This document shows positions 36,659 to 48,979 of a stretch of DNA of 64,000 bases, piece by piece. The stretch is from assembly GCA_023249635.1 (NCBI GenBank), contig JAHFCH010000003.1, positions 36,617-100,616 of the forward strand, in the 5' to 3' direction. The notes under the pieces were generated by a model that had not been told where the DNA came from, ran no database searches, and saw only the letters and a program-made list of their open reading frames with translations. Source of the stretch: Fibrobacterota bacterium. GTDB lineage: Bacteria > Fibrobacterota > Fibrobacteria > UBA11236. Each line of letters starts with the position of its first letter. Position 1 is the first letter of the stretch. The translations under genes and the position numbers were made by a program.

Positions 36659-37543
36659 ATGCATTCCATCAAAGCGCACATGCGGGAGTTGAAAGCGCCT
36701 TTCGTCCTCATCTATCTCTCGCTGATGGGCTTCCTGTGCATCTATTCCGTACAGCGTTACCTGCACCTTCGCTTCGAGCCGATGAGCTGCCTCAGCTTCA
36801 TGGGTATCATCTTCGGCGTGTATACCCTCAACCGCTTCACGGATACGGCCGAGGACTTCACCAACGATATCGGCCGCCTGCTCTTTTTCCAACGCAAGCG
36901 CAGCTTCCTCGCCATCGCAATCCTGTCCTTGGCCGCGAGCATGGGCTTCCTGCTGTGGGCCGAAAAGCTGAATTGGATGCATTGCCTGCTGCTCGCAATG
37001 GGTTTCGCCTATTCCTACCGCGTGGTTCCCTGGTTCGATCGGGCCAGCGGTTTCCAGCTCCTGCGCATCAAGGAAATGACCTTCCTCAAGAACCTATCGG
37101 TCTCGTTCCTGTGGGGCGCCGCGGTCTTCGTGGTGCCCATCGCCTATTCCGGGATCGTCGCTTTCGACCATAAGATGGTCTGGCTGCTGGCTTCGGGTCT
37201 CTTCGTCAGCACTTTCAACAACACCCTATTCGACGATATCCTCGACGAAGCCGGTGATCGCGTCGCGGGCATCAAGACCCTGCCCACCACCTGGGGCGTG
37301 CGCCGCTCCGAGTTCATGCTCATGGCCCTGGATCTGGTTTGGCTGGGCGCGGTAGCGGCGCTGTATTCAGCGCGCCACGTCGATGGCGCCCACGCCCTAT
37401 TCCTGGCGTTCTTGGGCATATACCCGTTCTTCTACCTGGTTCCGCATCTCCGCACCAAAACCAATAAGGGTTGGATCGACCTTCTGGCCGAAACCGATTT
37501 GCTGTTTTTCGCGGTGGGAATGCTCTTGCTCAGCTTCCGCTGA
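36659..37543 (+). CDS. UbiA-family prenyltransferase
   Basis: First Asp-rich motif NRFTDTAEDFTND and second FDDILDEAGDRVAGIKTLP, with ~8 TM segments. Start at internal ATG 36659 (MHSIKAHMREL). Confidence 0.75.
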   Translation: MHSIKAHMRELKAPFVLIYLSLMGFLCIYSVQRYLHLRFEPMSCLSFMGIIFGVYTLNRFTDTAEDFTNDIGRLLFFQRKRSFLAIAILSLAASMGFLLWAEKLNWMHCLLLAMGFAYSYRVVPWFDRASGFQLLRIKEMTFLKNLSVSFLWGAAVFVVPIAYSGIVAFDHKMVWLLASGLFVSTFNNTLFDDILDEAGDRVAGIKTLPTTWGVRRSEFMLMALDLVWLGAVAALYSARHVDGAHALFLAFLGIYPFFYLVPHLRTKTNKGWIDLLAETDLLFFAVGMLLLSFR

Positions 37544-40848: not shown

Positions 40849-41499
40849 ATGAGCTCCGAGCACAGGGTTTCAATCGTCATGGTCGAGGACAATCTCGACC
40901 TGGCGCAGACCATCCAAGATTTCCTATCGACCGAGCCCGGTCTGGAAGTCGTACACGTAGCCCACGATACCAAGGGGTTCCAACTGGCCGTGGCCGATCT
41001 GCTCCCCGAAATGGCCCTGATCGATATCAACCTCGATACCCCCAGGGCCGGCCTGGACCTCCTGCTGTGGCTAAGGAAGCTCTATCCCGTGGTCCAACCG
41101 GTCATCATGACCGTGAACCAGGGGGATGTCCTGGAAGCCTACCAGGCAGGCGCCCGCGGTTATGTGCTGAAAACGAGCCTGGAAATCCTCGCGCCTACCC
41201 TGCTCGATGTAAGTCAGGGGAAACTCATCATCCCTCCCCAAGTGGGGGAACTCTACGTAAAACAGGTCGCCGCTTCGGCGGAACTCTGGAAGAAATCCGT
41301 CGAGCTGGAGCGTTTTTCCGATCGGGAAAAGGAGATCCTGCGGCACCTCCGCGCCGGGATGCGGCGGGAGGATATCGGCGACAAGCTGAGCATTTCCTTC
41401 TTCACCGTACGCCGGCATATCCAGAATATGCTGGAAAAAACCGGAGAGCCTACCGTTAAGGCCATCCTGGAAAAATTCGGAGAGGTACTCGGCGGTTAG
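40849..41499 (+). CDS. two-component response regulator, NarL/FixJ (LuxR) family
   Basis: Receiver domain (IVMVEDN, ALIDINLD, PVIMTV). LuxR-type HTH FSDREKEILRHLRAGMRREDIGDKLSISFFTVRRHIQNMLEKTG. Confidence 0.85.
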   Translation: MSSEHRVSIVMVEDNLDLAQTIQDFLSTEPGLEVVHVAHDTKGFQLAVADLLPEMALIDINLDTPRAGLDLLLWLRKLYPVVQPVIMTVNQGDVLEAYQAGARGYVLKTSLEILAPTLLDVSQGKLIIPPQVGELYVKQVAASAELWKKSVELERFSDREKEILRHLRAGMRREDIGDKLSISFFTVRRHIQNMLEKTGEPTVKAILEKFGEVLGG

Positions 41500-41704
41500 G
41501 TCCCTTTCGCGGGTATTTGGCCCTGCGAGGAAATTTGGCCGTCCAGTTAGGGCCGAAAGGGAGGCCGAACGCCTTTCCCTCTCCGAGAACAGAACTTAAT
41601 GCCCCCCAGACGTCCTGGAAACACCATCCTGCGTGGTGCTTTACCCCTCCCTTAAGCCCTCCCCCAAGTTGGATTTTGTCCGGATTTAGTTAACGTATCA
41701 CCCC

Positions 41705-42013
41705 ATGCTGGTCAACGCCGTGACCGTCTACGTTAAGCCGGAGCATATCGCCGATTTCATCGCAGCCTCCATGGAAAACCATGCCGGGTCGCGCCAGGAA
41801 TCCGGCAATTTCCGCTTCGACGTGTTGCAATCATCCGACGATCCTGCCCGCTTCTTGTTGTACGAAGTGTTCGCCTCGCAGGCAGCCGTAGAAGAGCATC
41901 GCAAGACGGCTCACTACCTAGCTTGGAAGACCAAGGTGGAACCCTGGATGGCCAAGCCCCGGGAACCGCGTTGGCATACTATCGTCGCCCCGACGGATCC
42001 CGCTTCATGGTGA
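41705..42013 (+). CDS. antibiotic biosynthesis monooxygenase (ABM)/YgiN-like family protein
   Basis: 102 aa. MLVNAVTVYVKPEHIADFIAA...FRFDVLQS...FLLYEVFASQAAVEEHRKTAHY is the ABM ferredoxin-like fold signature. Confidence 0.7.
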   Translation: MLVNAVTVYVKPEHIADFIAASMENHAGSRQESGNFRFDVLQSSDDPARFLLYEVFASQAAVEEHRKTAHYLAWKTKVEPWMAKPREPRWHTIVAPTDPASW

Positions 42014-43188
42014 TGGCCGCCTTCTCATCCGCTCGCATCCCGCCCGTCTACTTCGGAGCGGGGCGGCTGGCGGAACTTCCCCGCATCGCATCGGCATTTG
42101 GCAAGGAAATCCTGCTCATCACCGGCGCGACTTCGCTCGCGGCCGGGGGCCGCCTGGAACGCGTACTCGCCTCCTTGCGCGAAGCGGGCCTGCGCCCCCA
42201 TCGCATCATCATCGATGCGGAGCCGTCCACGGCCTTCATCGACGAAACCTGCGCCGCCCTGCGCAGCCGCGCGTTCCAGGTGGTGATCGGCATCGGCGGC
42301 GGCAGCGTCATCGACGGCGCCAAGGCCATCTCGGCCATGCTGCCCCATTCCAACAGCGTGCTCGATCATCTGGAAGACGTAGGCCGCAACGTGCCGCATA
42401 GCGGCAAGAAGATCCCCTACGTAGCCGTGCCTACCACTTCGGGCACCGGCGGCGAGATGACCAAGAACGCGGTGCTGAGCATGGTCGGCCCGGAGGGTTA
42501 TAAGAAATCCCTCCGCCACGACAACCTCATCCCCGATGCCGTTATCGTGGATCCGGAGCTGATGACCACCTGTCCTCCGCATATCACGGCCGCCTGCGGC
42601 ATGGATGCCTTCACGCAATTGCTCGAGCCCTATCTTTCGCCCATCGCATCGCCCTTGACCGACGCCCTGGCCTGGAGCGGCCTGCAGCAGGCCCGCGAGA
42701 ACCTGGTTCCGGCCTGCACCGATCGCGGGGCGGATATCGGCATACGCGCCGGCCTGGCCTACGCATCCATGCTTTCGGGAGTGGCCCTGGCCAACGCCGG
42801 ATTGGGCATCGTGCATGGCCTGGCCTCCCCTATCGGCGGGTTCTTTCCCATTCCCCACGGCGTGGTGTGCGGCACCCTGGTGGCCTCGGCCACGGAGGCC
42901 AACATCGCCGCCCTGCGTCGGCGGCGCGAGAATCCCGCCGCCTTGGCCAAGTACGCCAAGGTGGGCGTGCTATTCGGCGGCGCGCCGGAAAACGGCGAAG
43001 CCTGGAATTGCGATTACCTGGTGGAACGCCTGCAGGCGTGGACCGACACCCTGGGGCTGGCGCGCCTTTCCAGCTACGGTATCGGCGCGGGCGATTTCGA
43101 CCGCATCATCGCCAAGACCAGCAACCGCCACAATCCGGTCAACCTCGAGCCCGACGATTTGCGCGCGCTGCTCGCACGGCGCCTGTGA
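42007..43188 (+). CDS. iron-containing (group III) alcohol dehydrogenase family protein
   Basis: GIGGGSVIDGAKAI (NAD(P)-binding GGGS motif), plus the His cluster GLGIVHGLASPIGG...PHGVVCG typical of Fe-ADH. Start ATG 42007 overlaps the ABM stop (ATGGTGA). Confidence 0.85.
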   Translation: MVMAAFSSARIPPVYFGAGRLAELPRIASAFGKEILLITGATSLAAGGRLERVLASLREAGLRPHRIIIDAEPSTAFIDETCAALRSRAFQVVIGIGGGSVIDGAKAISAMLPHSNSVLDHLEDVGRNVPHSGKKIPYVAVPTTSGTGGEMTKNAVLSMVGPEGYKKSLRHDNLIPDAVIVDPELMTTCPPHITAACGMDAFTQLLEPYLSPIASPLTDALAWSGLQQARENLVPACTDRGADIGIRAGLAYASMLSGVALANAGLGIVHGLASPIGGFFPIPHGVVCGTLVASATEANIAALRRRRENPAALAKYAKVGVLFGGAPENGEAWNCDYLVERLQAWTDTLGLARLSSYGIGAGDFDRIIAKTSNRHNPVNLEPDDLRALLARRL

Positions 43189-43955
43189 TCCGCAAACCCC
43201 GCAAACCCGCAAAGCCAGGTAAGGACGCCCGCCGTAACTCCAAGGTTACTCCCCGCAACGCGGGCGATAAAGGCGATCCCGAAAGCAAGGTAAAGGAACG
43301 CCGGTCTTTCGCGCAGAAGCGGCCCAAACCGCAAAAAGGTCCGGTCCGCCCGGAGGTGCCCCCGAGGCTTCGCTATCTGCTTTTCCATAAGCCCTACGCG
43401 GTGCTCAGCCAATTCACCCCCGAAGGCGGCAAGGCCTGCCTCAAGGATTTCATCAACGTACCGGGTATCTACGCGTGCGGCCGCTTGGATTGGGACAGCG
43501 AAGGATTGTTGCTCCTGACCAACGACGGCGATTTCAACCACAGCGTTGCGGCGCCCGGTAGCAAGCTTCCCAAAACCTATTGGGTGCAGGTGGAAGGCAC
43601 GCCCGATGCCGCCGCCCTCGAATCCTTGCGCAAAGGCGTGCTCATCGAAGGCCGCGCCACCCTGCCCGCCCGTGCCGAGCGCTTCCCCGCCGGCGACGCT
43701 CTGCTCCCGCGCAGCGTCCCCATCCGCGAGCGGAAAAACATCCCCGCCCCCTGGTTGCGGCTTACCCTGATCGAAGGCCGCAATCGGCAGGTGCGCAAGA
43801 TGACCGCGGCCGTGGGCCATCCCACCTTACGCCTCATCCGCCACTCCATTGGTCCTTTCACGCTTGAGGGGCTGGAACCGGGACGCTGGCGCGAGCTCAG
43901 CGCAGAGGAAATCCGCTCCAAAATGTCTACCTTTCCCCTCCGTCCCCGAACATGA
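43185..43955 (+). CDS. rluE: rRNA pseudouridine synthase, RluE/RsuA family, with basic N-terminal extension; putative GTG start
   Basis: LFHKPYAVLSQFT, GRLDWDSEGLLLLTNDG (catalytic Asp), TYWVQVEG, GRNRQVRKM. The Lys/Arg-rich N-terminus resembles E. coli RluE. No in-frame ATG lies upstream of the conserved core, so GTG 43185 (overlapping the ADH TGA as GTGA) is proposed. Confidence 0.6.
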   Translation: MIRKPRKPAKPGKDARRNSKVTPRNAGDKGDPESKVKERRSFAQKRPKPQKGPVRPEVPPRLRYLLFHKPYAVLSQFTPEGGKACLKDFINVPGIYACGRLDWDSEGLLLLTNDGDFNHSVAAPGSKLPKTYWVQVEGTPDAAALESLRKGVLIEGRATLPARAERFPAGDALLPRSVPIRERKNIPAPWLRLTLIEGRNRQVRKMTAAVGHPTLRLIRHSIGPFTLEGLEPGRWRELSAEEIRSKMSTFPLRPRT

Positions 43956-43975
43956 TCCTGCCAGGAGGTTCTGCC

Positions 43976-45286
43976 ATGCGGCTCGCCCTGTCCACCCTCT
44001 CCCTGTTGTGGGCCTTGCCCGCTGCCAGCCTCGCCGCCGGCGAAACCGCGCCGGCCCCTTCGGCGGCTGCGCCCGCCCCGGTAGTTGCGCCCGTGCCCGC
44101 TAAAGAAGTCATCGATACCGCCGATGCTCCCGCAGCCGCGGTTCCCGTCGCTGCCGCCCCGGATACGGGTACCGTCGCCAAGACCGACTCCGCCGCGCCC
44201 GCCTCGGCCGCCCAGGAACCCGTGCCCCTGGAGATCCGCAACGCGTACCTGGCTCACCTGGACCTCACCGGTACGGTCCAGCTCAAAGCCTTCTACCACA
44301 ACTTCGCCGCCGAAAAGGATGCGGACAAGCGCCTGAGCTTCCAATTGCGGCGCTTCGAATTCGGCCTGGAAGCGTCCTTCAACACCCACTCGGGCTTCAA
44401 GGGCGTAATGCTTCTGGATGGGGCCAACAAGAACTTCGGCGTGAACGATGCTTATCTGTACTACCGCGTGAACGACCTGGTCGGATTCAAAGGCGGTAAA
44501 ATGCGCCGCCCGTTCTCGCAGGAGTCCCTGCAATCGGCTCGCGGCCTGTATACCATTGAGCGCGGCGAGCTCTACTTCGATTTCCTCGCCAACACCACCG
44601 GCTACGCCTACTACGACCTCGGCGCCCTGGCCTACGGCGGCTTCGAAGAGGACGGCATGAGCCTGGGCTATGAACTCGGCGTCTTCAACGGCAAGCAGAA
44701 CGACGATGCGGCCAAGGATTATTCCGGCCAGCAGGACGAGAAGACGGACAAGGGCTTTAAAGCCAAGGACGTGGTCTTCCGCGTGAACGCTTCGCCGTTC
44801 AAGGCCCTCAAGGTGGAAGGCGCGGTATCGACCAAGGCGGCCGAAAACGTTTCCAACCCGGCGGATTTCGGCTATGCGGTCAACACCGCATATCAGTTGG
44901 GGGCCGATTTCCATTACGATAAGCTGCGCCTGCTGGGCGAAGCCGCCTGGGGAGACAACCATAAGAAGCAGGATTCCAAGATTATCGACGGCAGCGTCCT
45001 CTTCTTCACCTTCTATACGGCGGCGGTCTGGCGCGAAGACTACAGCCGCGGGCGCGCCAGCGAACTGGTGCTGAAGATGGAAGGTCTCGATCCCGATTTC
45101 GAACCCGGTACGGGCGAAGGCGCGCCCAATGACGGCAAGCTTCGCTACACGCTGGGATGCAATTACTTCTTCACGCCCACCATCAGCATCATGGCGGATT
45201 ACGCCGCGCTGCAGCCCATCACCAAGGTGGCGGGCGAGGACAAGCTCACCCACGACTTCGATGTCATGTGGCGGATGAGCTTCTGA
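43976..45286 (+). CDS. putative outer-membrane porin (OprO/OprP-like beta-barrel) with Ala/Pro-rich N-terminal linker
   Basis: Signal peptide MRLALSTLSLLWALPAASLAAG. Ala/Pro-rich linker. ~350-aa beta-rich region with alternating aromatic/hydrophobic residues, ending in terminal Phe (MWRMSF), typical of OM beta-barrels. Confidence 0.5.
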   Translation: MRLALSTLSLLWALPAASLAAGETAPAPSAAAPAPVVAPVPAKEVIDTADAPAAAVPVAAAPDTGTVAKTDSAAPASAAQEPVPLEIRNAYLAHLDLTGTVQLKAFYHNFAAEKDADKRLSFQLRRFEFGLEASFNTHSGFKGVMLLDGANKNFGVNDAYLYYRVNDLVGFKGGKMRRPFSQESLQSARGLYTIERGELYFDFLANTTGYAYYDLGALAYGGFEEDGMSLGYELGVFNGKQNDDAAKDYSGQQDEKTDKGFKAKDVVFRVNASPFKALKVEGAVSTKAAENVSNPADFGYAVNTAYQLGADFHYDKLRLLGEAAWGDNHKKQDSKIIDGSVLFFTFYTAAVWREDYSRGRASELVLKMEGLDPDFEPGTGEGAPNDGKLRYTLGCNYFFTPTISIMADYAALQPITKVAGEDKLTHDFDVMWRMSF

Positions 45287-46121
45287 TCCAGTGGGCGCGC
45301 TTCTCGGCGTAGCCCAGGTAGGACAGTGCCAGCGAAGGCGTAAAGCGGAAGCGGAAATCCGGCGGGACCCGACGGGTCGCCAGCAGTTTCCAGAATGCCC
45401 GGCTCGCGACCACGGGGCGCATCCCCAGCATGCGGCGCGGCGCCAACCCGGCCTCCGCGCACATGCCTTCCAATTCACCCGGTTTGATGAAAAGCGGCAA
45501 TACATGCATATGCCGGGGCGTATTCCGCACGAACCATTCCACACCCTTGATGATGATGAGCCAGGCCAGGGGATTGCGGTTGAAGGTGTGGAAGAAGAAC
45601 AGCCCGCCCGGGCGCAGCACGCGCGCGGCTTCGGCCACCACGCGTCCCGGGGCGCTGACATGCTCCAGGAAATCCAAGGCGCACACCGCATCGAAACATC
45701 CGTCCGGGAAAGGTAACCTGTACGCGTCGGCGGCGAGGTAACCCCGGCCGGGCCCCCCCGGCGCCACCCTCAGGCTGCCCAAGGAAAGGTCGGCCCCCAT
45801 GACGGTATGGCCGCGGTCGGCCAATTCGCGGGAAAGGAATCCCGCCCCGCACCCGATGTCGAGCACGCGGCCGGGACCCCCGTCCCATGCCTCGCGCAAG
45901 CGCTTGGCGATCCAAGGATGCTTGAGTGCGCCCTCGGCGCGCAACAGGGCCACCGGATCGTCGTAGGCTTCGTGCCAACGCGCGCCCAATCCATCGTAGA
46001 AGCCGTTATTGACCAGGGCGCGATCGGAAACGCCGCTGGCGTCGCTACGGACCGAATCGCGGTCCGCGCTTGCCCGGAAAGAGTCGCTCAGTGGCGTGCG
46101 ATGCGCAAGGACGGTTTCCAT
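45264..46121 (-). CDS. class I SAM-dependent methyltransferase (UbiG-like)
   Basis: VLDIGCGAGFLSRELADRGHTVMGADLS (motif I and post-I acidic residue) and GCFDAVCALDFLEHV (motif II). Start at internal Met METVLAHRT (46121). Confidence 0.7.
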   Translation of the reverse strand: METVLAHRTPLSDSFRASADRDSVRSDASGVSDRALVNNGFYDGLGARWHEAYDDPVALLRAEGALKHPWIAKRLREAWDGGPGRVLDIGCGAGFLSRELADRGHTVMGADLSLGSLRVAPGGPGRGYLAADAYRLPFPDGCFDAVCALDFLEHVSAPGRVVAEAARVLRPGGLFFFHTFNRNPLAWLIIIKGVEWFVRNTPRHMHVLPLFIKPGELEGMCAEAGLAPRRMLGMRPVVASRAFWKLLATRRVPPDFRFRFTPSLALSYLGYAEKRAHWIRSSSAT

Positions 46122-46588
46122 GGTCCATTCCAGAAGAGAAGTTGCCAGATCGCGAACACGATGGTGAGCCCCAGCTGCACCGCCAAGAAGCGGCCGAACA
46201 GGGACCGGCCCGTAGCATCGGCGGCGAAGGAGATGCCGGGCCATAGATCAGCGAAGGCCCATGCCCCCACCAAACCCAGTAATACGGGATGCAGCAGGAA
46301 CAGGCAGGCATGCAGCCAACATTCCGCGCCGGAGCAATCGCGGGCGTGCACCCATTCGTCCTTGGTGACGAACGCGCTGGAACCCAACGCGGCGGCGGCA
46401 TACATCATCGCGCCGGAAGCAGTCACGGGCAGGCGCACCGCCAAGCCATAGCACAACAATACGCTCAAGGTATCCAGGGGATGGCCCCAGCGCTCCCATG
46501 CGCCCAGGCCCCGGCGCACGTGCATGGTCTCGTCGGCCAGCATCAGACCAGCGTGCAGGACGAAGGGAATAAGCGCCAACCGCCACAT
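46088..46588 (-). CDS. small integral membrane protein, unknown function (part of the type III PKS operon)
   Basis: C-terminal 166 aa of track ORF 46088..46735, starting MWRLALIPFVLHAGLMLA. ~4 predicted TM helices. Start 3 nt downstream of the PKS stop. Confidence 0.45.
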   Translation of the reverse strand: MWRLALIPFVLHAGLMLADETMHVRRGLGAWERWGHPLDTLSVLLCYGLAVRLPVTASGAMMYAAAALGSSAFVTKDEWVHARDCSGAECWLHACLFLLHPVLLGLVGAWAFADLWPGISFAADATGRSLFGRFLAVQLGLTIVFAIWQLLFWNGPWKPSLRIARH

Positions 46589-46590
46589 GT

Positions 46591-47913
46591 TCAGGCCTTT
46601 CGGAGCATGGTGCCGTAAATGGTCAGTCCCGGCCCAAAGGCCAGGCTGGTGATCAGGGTTCCGGGCTTGACCGAAGCATCGGCCAGCATCCCCGCCCATA
46701 CGTGCGGCAAGGTGGCGGATGACATGTTGCCGCAAGCTTTGAGCACCGCACGGCTGGCGGCCACCTGCGCGGGTTTCAGTTCCAGCATCCCCGCAACCCT
46801 ATCGATGATACGCGGGCCGCCGGGATGGATGGCGAACAACCCGCGCCCCAGGGCTTCCGCGGGATTGGTACCCGTACGTTCGTACAAGCGCTCGATAAAT
46901 TCACCCAAGGCGCCGGCGATCATGTCGGGCACTTCCCGCGCCAACAGGATGCGCATGCCATGATCCCCCAACTGCCAACCGATGGCATCCAGGGTATCGG
47001 GCACGATTTCCTCATGCACCCCGAGGAAGCGCAGACCGGGAGCATCGTCCTCGTTGCGGATGCTATAGCGGATGTGCCCGTCGGCGAAAAGGCTTTGCAC
47101 TACCAGCTGTTCGGGCATGTGTTGGGAGGGGTTCAGATGCAGGGAACAGAACTCGGTATGCACGATATCGACCCGGCCGCCCTTACGGGCTTGCGAGGCG
47201 ACTGCGGGACCGGCACCGCCATCGCGGCGCGCCCAGCCGGGCCCGGCGGAATTACCGGCAGGGGAAACCCTTGGAGATGCCAGGAAGGCGGTAGCCATGC
47301 GCAAGGCGGGCATGGAGGCGTAGCAACCCATGTGGTAGGCGTGGACCACTCCAGTGCGCCCGCGCCAACCCTTTGCGGCCACCAGCTTTTGGGCCGCGCT
47401 GGGCGCGACATAACCCGTGCAGGAAACGTGGATCAACTCATCCGGCGGCTCCTGGTCCTGGGACTCCCAGGAAATGGGGGCACCGTCGGCATCCTGGGCG
47501 CGCCCCGGCCTCGCCTCGGCGGCGACCGCGGCGGCGGCGCTGCCGTTCTCCGCACCGGGATAGAAGGCCGCGAAAGCCCGATCGGCCACCTCCTGAAAGG
47601 CTTGCATGCGCACCCCCATGCCGGCCCCGTTGGCATCCCTCCCCACGTCGAAAATCCGCATGCGTTCCCAATCCTGATGGATGAAATCATCCATGTCGAA
47701 ACCCCGATAGGCCAGGTTCTCGGGATTGCACCCGTAACGGGAAACCAGGCGTTCCATCCGCCCCCGAAAAACGGCCTCATCAAATTCCGGACCGCTAATG
47801 CCCGCCTCGGCATGGGCATGGGCCGAGGCCAGCCAACGCACCGCCGCGTCGTGCGCGCCCAAGTGCTTGGGCCTCAATATGCGGAAGTCCCCAATCAGGC
47901 AATCAACAGACAT
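46591..47913 (-). CDS. type III polyketide synthase (chalcone/stilbene synthase superfamily)
   Basis: Active-site Cys context HMGCYASM, IHPGGPRIID (His region) and C-terminal LAFGPGLT (Asn/GFGPG loop) match type III PKS. Two low-complexity insertions (GAENGSAAAAVAAEARPGRAQDADGAP...; PRVSPAGNSAGPGWARRDGGAGPAVA). Confidence 0.8.
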   Translation of the reverse strand: MSVDCLIGDFRILRPKHLGAHDAAVRWLASAHAHAEAGISGPEFDEAVFRGRMERLVSRYGCNPENLAYRGFDMDDFIHQDWERMRIFDVGRDANGAGMGVRMQAFQEVADRAFAAFYPGAENGSAAAAVAAEARPGRAQDADGAPISWESQDQEPPDELIHVSCTGYVAPSAAQKLVAAKGWRGRTGVVHAYHMGCYASMPALRMATAFLASPRVSPAGNSAGPGWARRDGGAGPAVASQARKGGRVDIVHTEFCSLHLNPSQHMPEQLVVQSLFADGHIRYSIRNEDDAPGLRFLGVHEEIVPDTLDAIGWQLGDHGMRILLAREVPDMIAGALGEFIERLYERTGTNPAEALGRGLFAIHPGGPRIIDRVAGMLELKPAQVAASRAVLKACGNMSSATLPHVWAGMLADASVKPGTLITSLAFGPGLTIYGTMLRKA

Positions 47914-48016
47914 GGCGGTTCCTCCCGGGATTTTCGATCGGGGGGAAGATAAAGAAAAAGCCCGGCGGGACGCCAGGCTTTTATGGGAGAGAATGTCCGC
48001 GGTTGCGGGAGGCTAT

Positions 48017-48979
48017 TCAGCGCGAATAGAAGAACTTGCCCAGTACGCGGTTGCCCGATTGGACGAAGTACACGCCCGTCGGGGCATCAGCGCCCACGGC
48101 GGTCTTGCCGTTCCACTGGTACAGATAGCCCGTCTGGTGCAGACTGGCGACTTTATTGCCCATCATCCCGTAAAGGCTCAACGGCTCGCTACCCGAAACG
48201 TTCGCTCCTGCTTTGATGAGTACCATGCCACCGTTTTGGCTGGCCTGGAACCCGCTCTGGGATGCCTTGGCCGATTTGATGCCGGAAATGGGCGTGGGCA
48301 GCGAATCGTACATCAGTTTGACTAGCTGAACGGTGAAATCCACCTTCTGGGTATCGCTGTTTCCGTAATCCTTCCAGGTATCCAGCAGCACTTTCACAAG
48401 GGCCGCAGAATCGGGATGGCTGGTTAGCTCGGGGTAGAAATGCGTGAAGCTGCCTTTGGAAGCGCCGGTCGTGCTGTAAAGCGTGCGTTTCATGGTGGCA
48501 TTCCCATACCACATGACCAGCATCGGCTTGTCCTTGAACTTACCAATGGCATCGTACAAAGCAACGGTATCGCCGTTCACCTTGGATGCGAATCCGAACC
48601 AGTATTCGTTCCAGCCCGGCTTCTTGAACATGAATTCGCCATCATTGATCTTCAGGAAGTAATCGCTGGTGGGCGCAGAAGTAAAAGCTTTGGCCGCCTT
48701 CTTACGGGTCGCGAAGGTCACTTCCTTCTTTACCCAGGTATCGCAGGTGCCGCTGCCGTTCCAATCGGTAATCATCTTGTATTCGGTGGTATCGTGCAGC
48801 AAGGTCACAGCCCCCATGGGCTTGTCGACCTTGGTGCCGGCCGCCGCATGCATGGTACCCTGCGCGTTACCCGTGAGGATATACTGGGTGCCCTCCTGCA
48901 TGTGGTAGGACTGTTCGCAGACTTTGGCACCTGCCCAAGTCGCCACGCAAAGACCGGTTAGGACGATGATTTTGTTCAT
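48017..48979 (-). CDS. secreted protein of unknown function with T9SS C-terminal sorting domain
   Basis: Signal peptide MNKIIVLTGLCVATWAGA. C-terminus SLYGMMGNKVASLHQ...TGVYFVQSGNRVLGKFFYSR matches the Por/T9SS CTD. Lys-rich; codon usage looks more AT-rich than neighbours. Confidence 0.55.
   Translation of the reverse strand: MNKIIVLTGLCVATWAGAKVCEQSYHMQEGTQYILTGNAQGTMHAAAGTKVDKPMGAVTLLHDTTEYKMITDWNGSGTCDTWVKKEVTFATRKKAAKAFTSAPTSDYFLKINDGEFMFKKPGWNEYWFGFASKVNGDTVALYDAIGKFKDKPMLVMWYGNATMKRTLYSTTGASKGSFTHFYPELTSHPDSAALVKVLLDTWKDYGNSDTQKVDFTVQLVKLMYDSLPTPISGIKSAKASQSGFQASQNGGMVLIKAGANVSGSEPLSLYGMMGNKVASLHQTGYLYQWNGKTAVGADAPTGVYFVQSGNRVLGKFFYSR

Follow-up and report, generated by a model that had tools for sequence, protein, structure and literature searches.

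The DNA considered here, referred to as the window, is a 64,000-nucleotide stretch of contig JAHFCH010000003.1 from a Fibrobacterota bacterium (GenBank assembly GCA_023249635.1), and our subject is a compact group of three minus-strand genes within it that very probably specifies a phenolic-lipid pathway. The first gene (46591..47913) encodes a 440-residue type III polyketide synthase (PKS) that Pfam and its closest solved structure place as an Ars-type enzyme, a predicted alkylresorcinol synthase. The second (46088..46588) encodes a 166-residue integral membrane protein of an unnamed family, which we call MEM and for which hydropathy, a structural model and residue conservation suggest a metal centre. 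The third (45264..46121) encodes a 285-residue class I methyltransferase dependent on S-adenosylmethionine (SAM) and resembling UbiG/Coq3 (MT), as judged from Pfam, the TIGR01983 model and solved relatives. We refer to the three genes together as the PKS-MEM-MT cassette. Public gene calls for the same (114-kb) contig give three protein sequences identical to those of our open reading frames (ORFs), which lie at the positions given in the original prediction, a short note made from the DNA sequence alone.

The three genes are tightly packed. Between the PKS stop codon (TGA, 46593..46591) and the MEM ATG at 46588 lie 2 nt, where 3 nt had first been reported, and the MEM ORF overlaps the start of MT by 34 nt (46088..46121), an overlap that had been noted correctly. 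A Shine-Dalgarno-like GGGAGG, read directly from the sequence, lies on the minus strand 7 nt upstream of the PKS ATG (47921..47926). Further upstream, a minus-strand, terminator-like hairpin with a 12-pair stem followed by a T-run (47956..47982, a consensus match only) lies between the PKS and the preceding gene (48017..48979) and is the likely 5′ boundary of the transcription unit; this assignment depends on the position of the hairpin and not on site counts, because the scanned region held 3 terminator-like sites against 5.1 expected by chance. A sigma-70 promoter scan, which is uninformative for this phylum, gave no match. At the other end, a porin-like gene on the plus strand (43952..45286) converges on MT and overlaps its 3′ end by 23 nt. 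Given the 2-nt gap, the 34-nt overlap, the upstream hairpin, the recurrence of the same gene order and strand in related loci (75 of 80) and the existence of MEM-MT fusions (both described below), we concluded that, as far as sequence can show, PKS-MEM-MT is a self-contained three-gene operon, and the tight coupling originally proposed thus stands. All three are real genes and not chance ORFs in GC-rich DNA, since homologues of each number in the hundreds and the trio is kept as a unit across phyla.

The PKS belongs to the chalcone synthase superfamily, as had been predicted. Its C-terminal domain matches Chal_sti_synt_C (4.9e-22; 79 bits against a cut-off of 27), whereas its N-terminal Pfam chalcone synthase domain is divergent and falls just below threshold (24.7 against 27 bits), and its best NCBIfam match, DpgA, reaches 72 bits, far below the 425-bit cut-off. 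The nearest relatives (73-76% identity) come from Fibrobacterota metagenome-assembled genomes (MAGs). When solved structures were ranked by score, the best was ArsC of Azotobacter vinelandii (3vs8; G284W mutant 3vs9), at E 1e-54 and 189 bits, with 40% identity over 290 columns (query residues 155-439), whereas the other solved type III PKSs, including Mycobacterium PKS11 and plant enzymes, gave at most 76 bits and THNS of Streptomyces coelicolor (1u0m) gave 71.5 bits. The catalytic triad Cys197 (MGCY), His363 (IHPGG) and Asn396 (GNMSS) aligns with that of ArsC and is invariant in 60 aligned sequences (the window PKS, 58 cassette PKSs and ArsC). The GFGPG-type loop, which reads LAFGPGLT in the window protein, is likewise invariant among the aligned relatives. 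The two low-complexity insertions pointed out earlier are real (residues 120-151 and 216-243); they occur in fewer than 30% of related PKSs and are lineage specific.

One position bears directly on the likely product. Trp313 of the window PKS aligns with G284 of ArsC (3vs8), with W284 of the ArsC mutant (3vs9) and with the position of W281 in ArsB, and tryptophan is found there in 59 of 59 cassette PKSs. The W281G change in ArsB converts an alkylresorcinol synthase into an alkylpyrone synthase, and G284W in ArsC causes the reverse switch (reviewed in PMC6274091); the same tryptophan has been used as a marker to predict resorcinol-forming PKSs in polyketide-quinone operons (PMC9927152). These features argue strongly that the window protein is an Ars-type PKS, predicted to make a 5-alkylresorcinol from a fatty acyl thioester. 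Clustering with RppA/THNS-type enzymes had been named as grounds for abandoning a phenolic-lipid interpretation; among solved structures the PKS scores far closer to ArsC than to THNS, and that test therefore leaves the interpretation in place.

MT matches Methyltransf_11 (1.4e-23) and scores 94.9 bits against the UbiG model TIGR01983, just below its cut-off of 102.95, and its sequence marks it as a close relative of UbiG rather than a UbiG orthologue. Escherichia coli UbiG is its best solved relative, both by sequence and by fold, and the similarity includes the UbiG-specific segment that follows the SAM-binding core, in agreement with the UbiG-like assignment first made. In ubiquinone biosynthesis, enzymes of the UbiG/Coq3 family methylate ring hydroxyls freshly installed by hydroxylases, and E. 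coli UbiG binds membranes unaided; the segment corresponding to its membrane-binding region is conserved in MT. The Pfam models for ICMT and PEMT are not matched by MT, nor, even at E 10, by MEM, so that the cassette is, as previously stated, without an ICMT-type methyltransferase.

We then come to MEM, which the original prediction described as an uncharacterised four-helix membrane protein. Uncharacterised it is: neither Pfam nor NCBIfam gave a match, a result that held for a scan of 29 family members at E 10, and a sequence-profile search of the PDB (110-sequence alignment, E 10) returned nothing. A word-indexed search found 214 relatives, and an exhaustive profile search of 1.84 billion representatives recovered only the family itself, as 324 clusters at 50% identity, with no bridge to a known family. 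The helix count has to be revised, because an AlphaFold2 model built from the 110-sequence alignment (pLDDT 94.2, pTM 0.88) has five long helices and family-averaged hydropathy likewise gives five hydrophobic segments (residues 5-18, 40-53, 59-74, 94-113 and 131-153). Lysine and arginine are concentrated on one side of the membrane (mean Lys+Arg of 4.1 in loop 19-39, 2.1 in loop 75-93 and 2.0 in the C-terminal tail, as against 0.35, 0.36 and 0.67 on the opposite side), which, by the positive-inside rule, places the polar loops and the C terminus in the cytoplasm.

Conservation singles out the same cytoplasmic face. Across 110 sequences, 35-70% identical to the query, the strictly invariant residues are D19, E20, H23, R26, W31, E32, G35, H36, P37, D39, K76, D77, E78, H81, E89, H93, F97, H100 and Q149. 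Twelve of these are Asp, Glu or His, and they lie in the two loop regions predicted to be cytoplasmic, forming a DE-x2-H ... E-x3-H motif in the first loop and a KDE-x2-H ... E-x3-H ... H motif in the second. In the model, the motifs sit at the ends or starts of four consecutive helices, on one membrane face, and E20xxH23, E32, E78xxH81 and E89, all invariant, are distributed over those helices in the order ExxH...E...ExxH...E. Carboxylate-bridged di-iron centres such as those of Coq7, alternative oxidase and the R2 subunit of ribonucleotide reductase are built from two ExxH motifs and two more carboxylates. MEM, by its sequence, probably binds metal, and a carboxylate/histidine-bridged di-iron centre would be the simplest form for the site to take.

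The cassette is widespread. When one genome for each species was scanned with patterns derived from MEM, relatives of MEM turned up in at least 540 species genomes. Neighbourhoods were counted in the best 80 loci of that scan, which include about 25 from Chlamydiota (all of them environmental lineages), 12 from Fibrobacterota, 8 from Myxococcota, 7 from Acidobacteriota, 4 from Bdellovibrionota and 2 from Verrucomicrobiota, so that the cassette is present in at least these six phyla. The order PKS-MEM-MT on a single strand is kept in 75 of the 80 loci, with a median of 2 nt between the PKS stop and the MEM start (10th-90th percentile, -4 to +15), and MT directly follows MEM on the same strand in 78, the other two being contig ends. 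At two loci a contig edge accounts for the lack of a PKS; in three others (L038, L053 and L070) there is genuinely none upstream. In two of these, from Blastocatellia/Acidobacteria MAGs, a conserved ORF of 169-171 codons stands in the place of the PKS (L038:5452-5961 and L070:5456-5971); its two versions are 59% identical to each other, have hydrophobic N-terminal segments and match no Pfam family. Approached from the other direction, four members of the PKS clade (~45% identity) were all adjoined by MEM, free or fused, and by MT, and two further loci reached through MEM homologues (L082 and L083) carry the same trio.

Many members of the MEM family are fused to the next enzyme. Several family matches of 385-432 amino acids consist, by Pfam, of MEM followed by a Methyltransf_11 domain, and more than 110 clusters of ~400-420 residues, covering at least 95% of the query, were retrieved with one such fusion (P0316, P0389-P0506). 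Fusions of MEM to MT are found in the Holophagae, including the cultured species Geothrix fuzhouensis and G. limicola. In G. fuzhouensis (GCA_024609325.1), a single 410-residue fusion ORF follows the PKS (L085:8158-9390); its first 160 residues are 33% identical to MEM, with every motif kept, and the remainder is 53% identical to the window MT. The contig from G. limicola carries a PKS match (P0107), and a further MEM-MT fusion is found in Acidobacteriota (L087:6176-7402). Fusions that are 31-41% identical to each other retain all the MEM invariants, and a model of a MEM-MT fusion is confident (pLDDT 94.1, pTM 0.76). The joining of the MEM C terminus to a cytoplasmic enzyme agrees with the topology set out above. 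In public annotation, the named fusion entries are of UbiG type (e.g., "bifunctional ... UbiG"), and the N-terminal membrane domain of 160 residues goes unannotated; organisms bearing the fusion may consequently be wrongly credited with a ubiquinone step. In precomputed annotation, one relative of the fusions (P0460, 561 residues) has extra NUDIX domains (PF00293, PF14815), perhaps through another fusion or through merged gene calls.

MEM is also joined to a second kind of transferase. In a metagenomic locus, a fusion of MEM to a UbiA prenyltransferase, lacking an MT domain, directly follows the PKS (P0374; L081:870-2168), and stand-alone homologues of its UbiA part adjoin the cassette in three Myxococcota loci (L037:3928-4716, L043:3869-4465 and L078:2210-2758). 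By analogy with the agq operon of Actinoplanes, this suggests a prenylated variant of the product. The original prediction had raised a functional link between the cassette and a UbiA gene elsewhere in the window (36659..37543). An ORF is indeed present there and has a weak, below-cut-off prenyltransferase match, but we rejected it as a member of the pathway: it lies ~7.7 kb away on the opposite strand, flanked by MgtC and histidine-kinase genes, with unrelated genes in between; tblastn at E ≤ 1e-3 detects no similarity between it and the cassette-linked UbiA genes; and none of the related loci has a homologue of it at E ≤ 1e-4.

The nearest described counterparts of the cassette are compact operons that combine a resorcinol-forming PKS, a methyltransferase and an FAD (flavin adenine dinucleotide) hydroxylase, with or without UbiA (PMC9927152, PMC10896814, PMC7692728). 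They include srsABC of Streptomyces griseus, pkqABC of mycobacteria and Streptomyces, hidABC of cyanobacteria and Planctomycetota and agqABCD of Actinoplanes, and their products are methoxylated alkyl-hydroquinones and -quinones or hierridin-type phenols (PMC9927152, PMC10896814, PMC7692728). The window cassette has the logic and size of srs, pkq and hid, namely, a PKS, a methyltransferase and one tailoring enzyme in a compact operon (PMC9927152, PMC10896814). Whereas the third enzyme of those operons is a soluble FAD-dependent hydroxylase or oxidoreductase (SrsC, PkqC and HidB; AgqB in agq), the cassette has none, and its third protein is a five-helix membrane protein with no detectable relation to flavoproteins. 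The methyltransferases of srs and pkq are ICMT-type membrane proteins, whereas that of the window is UbiG/Coq3-like.

Two other systems bear comparison. The ars operon of A. vinelandii has two PKSs coupled to dedicated type I fatty acid synthases and is not known to have a methyltransferase or a MEM-like gene; the window PKS shares the ArsC triad and carries the ArsB-type tryptophan, and its two low-complexity inserts are absent from ArsC. In Actinoplanes missouriensis, the agq operon, which makes alkyl-O-dihydrogeranyl-methoxyhydroquinone, reportedly comprises genes for a PKS, a monooxygenase, a methyltransferase and a UbiA-like prenyltransferase (Awakawa et al., 2011); AgqB is a flavoprotein monooxygenase. 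That system is paralleled by the Myxococcota cassettes with an added UbiA gene and by the MEM-UbiA fusion, whereas the window itself has no cassette-linked UbiA gene. AgqA makes alkylresorcinols, which are then prenylated and hydroxylated, agqB-D being the non-PKS genes of the operon (PMC7692728, PMC10896814). In the full-text literature that we searched, outside which most subscription journals fall, chlamydial type III PKS clusters appear as antiSMASH hits and no more (PMC9666466, PMC13229535), and neither the MEM family nor the combination of an Ars-type PKS, a five-helix metal-motif protein and a UbiG-like MT is described.

Taken together, these observations suggested a pathway in which the products of the operon, working on the cytoplasmic side of the inner membrane, would build a methylated phenolic lipid. 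The PKS would condense a fatty acyl thioester with three malonyl-CoA units and close the tetraketide by aldol condensation to give a 5-alkylresorcinol. MEM, through a metal centre at the membrane-cytoplasm interface made up of two ExxH motifs, two further invariant glutamates and extra histidines, would then hydroxylate the resorcinol ring to a benzenetriol in a reaction that is probably di-iron and O2 dependent. MT would O-methylate the ring, probably at the new vicinal hydroxyl, to yield a methoxy-alkylhydroquinone able to cycle to the methoxy-alkylbenzoquinone, i.e., a lipid of the “polyketide quinone” type. In some Myxococcota, a UbiA prenyltransferase would add a further step. The proposed order of MEM and then MT is that of ubiquinone synthesis, in which Coq7, a membrane-associated di-iron ring hydroxylase (E...ExxH twice), or UbiF precedes UbiG/Coq3, which methylates the Coq7 product. 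Coq7 differs in being interfacial and acting on a 4-hydroxybenzoate-derived ring, whereas MEM is integral, would act on a polyketide-derived ring and has a different motif order.

In the known operons, the PKS and the methyltransferase are accompanied by an FAD hydroxylase. No such enzyme is present here, which leaves MEM as the only remaining component to take the hydroxylation step; no FAD monooxygenase or reductase was found among the conserved neighbours of the window cassette and the 80 related loci. The invariant cluster resembling a metal site, the UbiG family membership of MT and the fusion of MEM to MT or UbiA are as would be expected of a MEM that makes or presents the acceptor hydroxyl. 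The resemblance of MEM is less to a passive stand-in for a membrane methyltransferase and more to a metal-binding enzyme occupying the hydroxylase slot. For the reading as a whole, a phenolic-lipid operon in which MEM hydroxylates and MT then O-methylates the ring, we put the probability at roughly 0.5. That the operon is a phenolic-lipid pathway at all we hold with considerably more assurance. The role of MEM as the ring hydroxylase, taken by itself, is a proposal to which we would give slightly less than even odds. Its fullest form is decidedly tentative: that MEM represents a new family of aromatic-ring hydroxylases that are small, integral to the membrane, non-haem and dimetal (probably di-iron), with no relation to the flavoprotein and Coq7 types, and that together with a UbiG-type MT it turns alkylresorcinols into methoxy-alkylbenzoquinones.

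Several points weigh against this reading. A hydroxylation step is not required a priori, since in many bacteria a PKS and a methyltransferase alone suffice for methylated alkylresorcinols or alkylpyrones. The cassette has no conserved reductase partner, and some Geothrix species are strict anaerobes, which is awkward for an O2-dependent hydroxylase. MEM has no sequence or fold similarity to known di-iron or other metalloenzymes, including Coq7 and ferritin-like proteins, and the order of its motifs is unlike the classical E...ExxH twice of ferritin-like di-iron proteins; the basis of the di-iron assignment is the motif inventory and helix positions. Nor do we claim an internal duplication, as hhalign of residues 1-56 against 57-113 aligned only the 8-residue DExxHxR segment (P 0.005). 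Finally, MEM and MT stay paired in the three loci without an adjacent PKS (L038, L053 and L070), which suits a role for MEM as a partner of MT equally well.

That last point leads to the strongest rival, in which MEM is a non-redox partner of MT, serving as a membrane anchor or substrate-presenting subunit and perhaps using a divalent cation to bind the phenolic head. MEM and the UbiG-like enzyme would then be a two-part integral-membrane O-methyltransferase, functionally like the ICMT-type SrsB/BpsB, and the lipid formed would be a plain methyl ether of an alkylresorcinol. MEM-MT is the tightest unit of the cassette, with the two genes adjacent on the same strand in 78 of 80 loci, paired even without the PKS and fused in more than 110 clusters; there is no ICMT-type enzyme to do the work otherwise, and two-enzyme pathways of a PKS and a methyltransferase are known (PMC9827899). 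However, 12 invariant acidic and histidine residues exceed the needs of an anchor, and in the MEM-UbiA fusion, which has no MT domain, MEM serves a different transferase. Moreover, E. coli UbiG needs no partner to bind membranes, and MT keeps the relevant segment. We regard this alternative as unlikely, though the likeliest of the rivals.

A less probable alternative keeps the metal and changes the chemistry, with MEM acting as an alkylresorcylic acid decarboxylase, as an acyl-releasing or priming hydrolase or as a desaturase or hydroxylase of the alkyl tail. Membrane di-iron enzymes usually act on acyl chains, and an invariant site rich in Asp, Glu and His would also suit hydrolytic Zn or Mn chemistry. 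Among the type III PKSs of bacteria, some are known to release resorcylic acids (PMC6274091). The site in MEM is predicted to lie at the cytoplasmic interface, however, which is where one would expect the aromatic head and not the tail, and fusion to ring-modifying transferases points to chemistry on the ring. In addition, because no Pfam family matches MEM, it is unlike both the fatty-acid desaturase/hydroxylase family and the YdjM-type membrane hydrolases (PF04307). We therefore consider this group of functions improbable.

Two remaining ideas have very little chance of being correct. One is that MEM has no biosynthetic role and is instead a haem-binding (bis-His), cytochrome-b-like electron transfer subunit or a quinol oxidase whose substrate is the completed lipid. 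The other is that the operon does not make a phenolic lipid and that the PKS uses short starters to form a pyrone, phloroglucinol or naphthalene-type product, an idea that could appeal to the below-threshold N-terminal domain, the weak DpgA match and the lack of an acyl-activating gene in the cassette but that is countered by the far closer relationship to ArsC than to THNS, PKS11 or plant enzymes, by the invariance of Trp313 and by the membrane association of both MEM and MT, which implies a lipidic substrate.

Beyond the cassette itself, the recurrent neighbours reflect lineage synteny. A thiol-peroxidase-like gene (Tpx; Redoxin, 1.2e-25) directly follows MT on the same strand in 26 of the 80 loci, giving a PKS-MEM-MT-Tpx arrangement (L012:7222-7740 on the plus strand and 25 others); these are loci of Chlamydiota, one of them (L065) labelled Verrucomicrobiae, and the arrangement could be lineage synteny or a hint of a role in oxidative stress. 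In two Acidobacteriota loci (L086:2846-4631 and L087:2843-4672), genes for an Fe-superoxide dismutase, an encapsulated-ferritin-like protein and a Linocin_M18 encapsulin are divergent from and immediately upstream of the PKS, the second recurrence beside the cassette of genes connected with iron and oxidative stress. In G. fuzhouensis, a gene of the flavodoxin/FMN-reductase family comes right after the MEM-MT fusion (L085:9505-10107), and its product may act either as a partner reductase or on quinones, as a quinone reductase. Three closely related Rhabdochlamydia loci (L015:7915-8889, L021:7913-8887 and L023:7998-8888) have a polyprenyl synthetase gene on the same strand, ~0.7 kb downstream of MT.

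Within the window, the gene directly upstream of the operon (48017..48979, minus strand) encodes a 320-residue protein with a hydrophobic N terminus and no Pfam or NCBIfam match. The converging porin-like gene resembles phosphate-selective porins (Porin_O_P, 6.9e-10), and the porin is syntenic in five Fibrobacteria loci; genes for a pseudouridine synthase, an Fe-alcohol dehydrogenase and a LuxR-type response regulator (within 40849..43955) each recur in four. An ORF of 102 codons on the plus strand (41705..42013), 3.3 kb from the operon, resembles the LsrG/antibiotic-biosynthesis-monooxygenase type (NCBIfam PRK10486, 84 bits against a cut-off of 135), and its size would suit a cofactor-less quinol monooxygenase. 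Neither tRNA nor tmRNA genes are present anywhere in the 64-kb window, and no Rfam family reaches its gathering score there.

Phenolic-lipid operons in which a methyltransferase accompanies a type III PKS were already known as a class, and what sets this one apart is that both accessory enzymes have been replaced. One of the replacements is a protein family that databases have not named, although it occurs in at least 540 species genomes, has an invariant charged core and is repeatedly fused to the next enzyme of the pathway, where the “UbiG” label conceals its membrane domain. If MEM is a hydroxylase, it would represent a new class of membrane metalloenzyme. If the pathway is as we propose, polyketide quinones would extend over at least six phyla, and the lipid could be an accessory respiratory or antioxidant quinone. 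For groups in which little is known of the redox chemistry of lipids, such as environmental chlamydiae, predatory bacteria and the iron-reducing Geothrix, a hydroxylase function of MEM would make the products of the pathway candidates for alternative quinones or membrane antioxidants.

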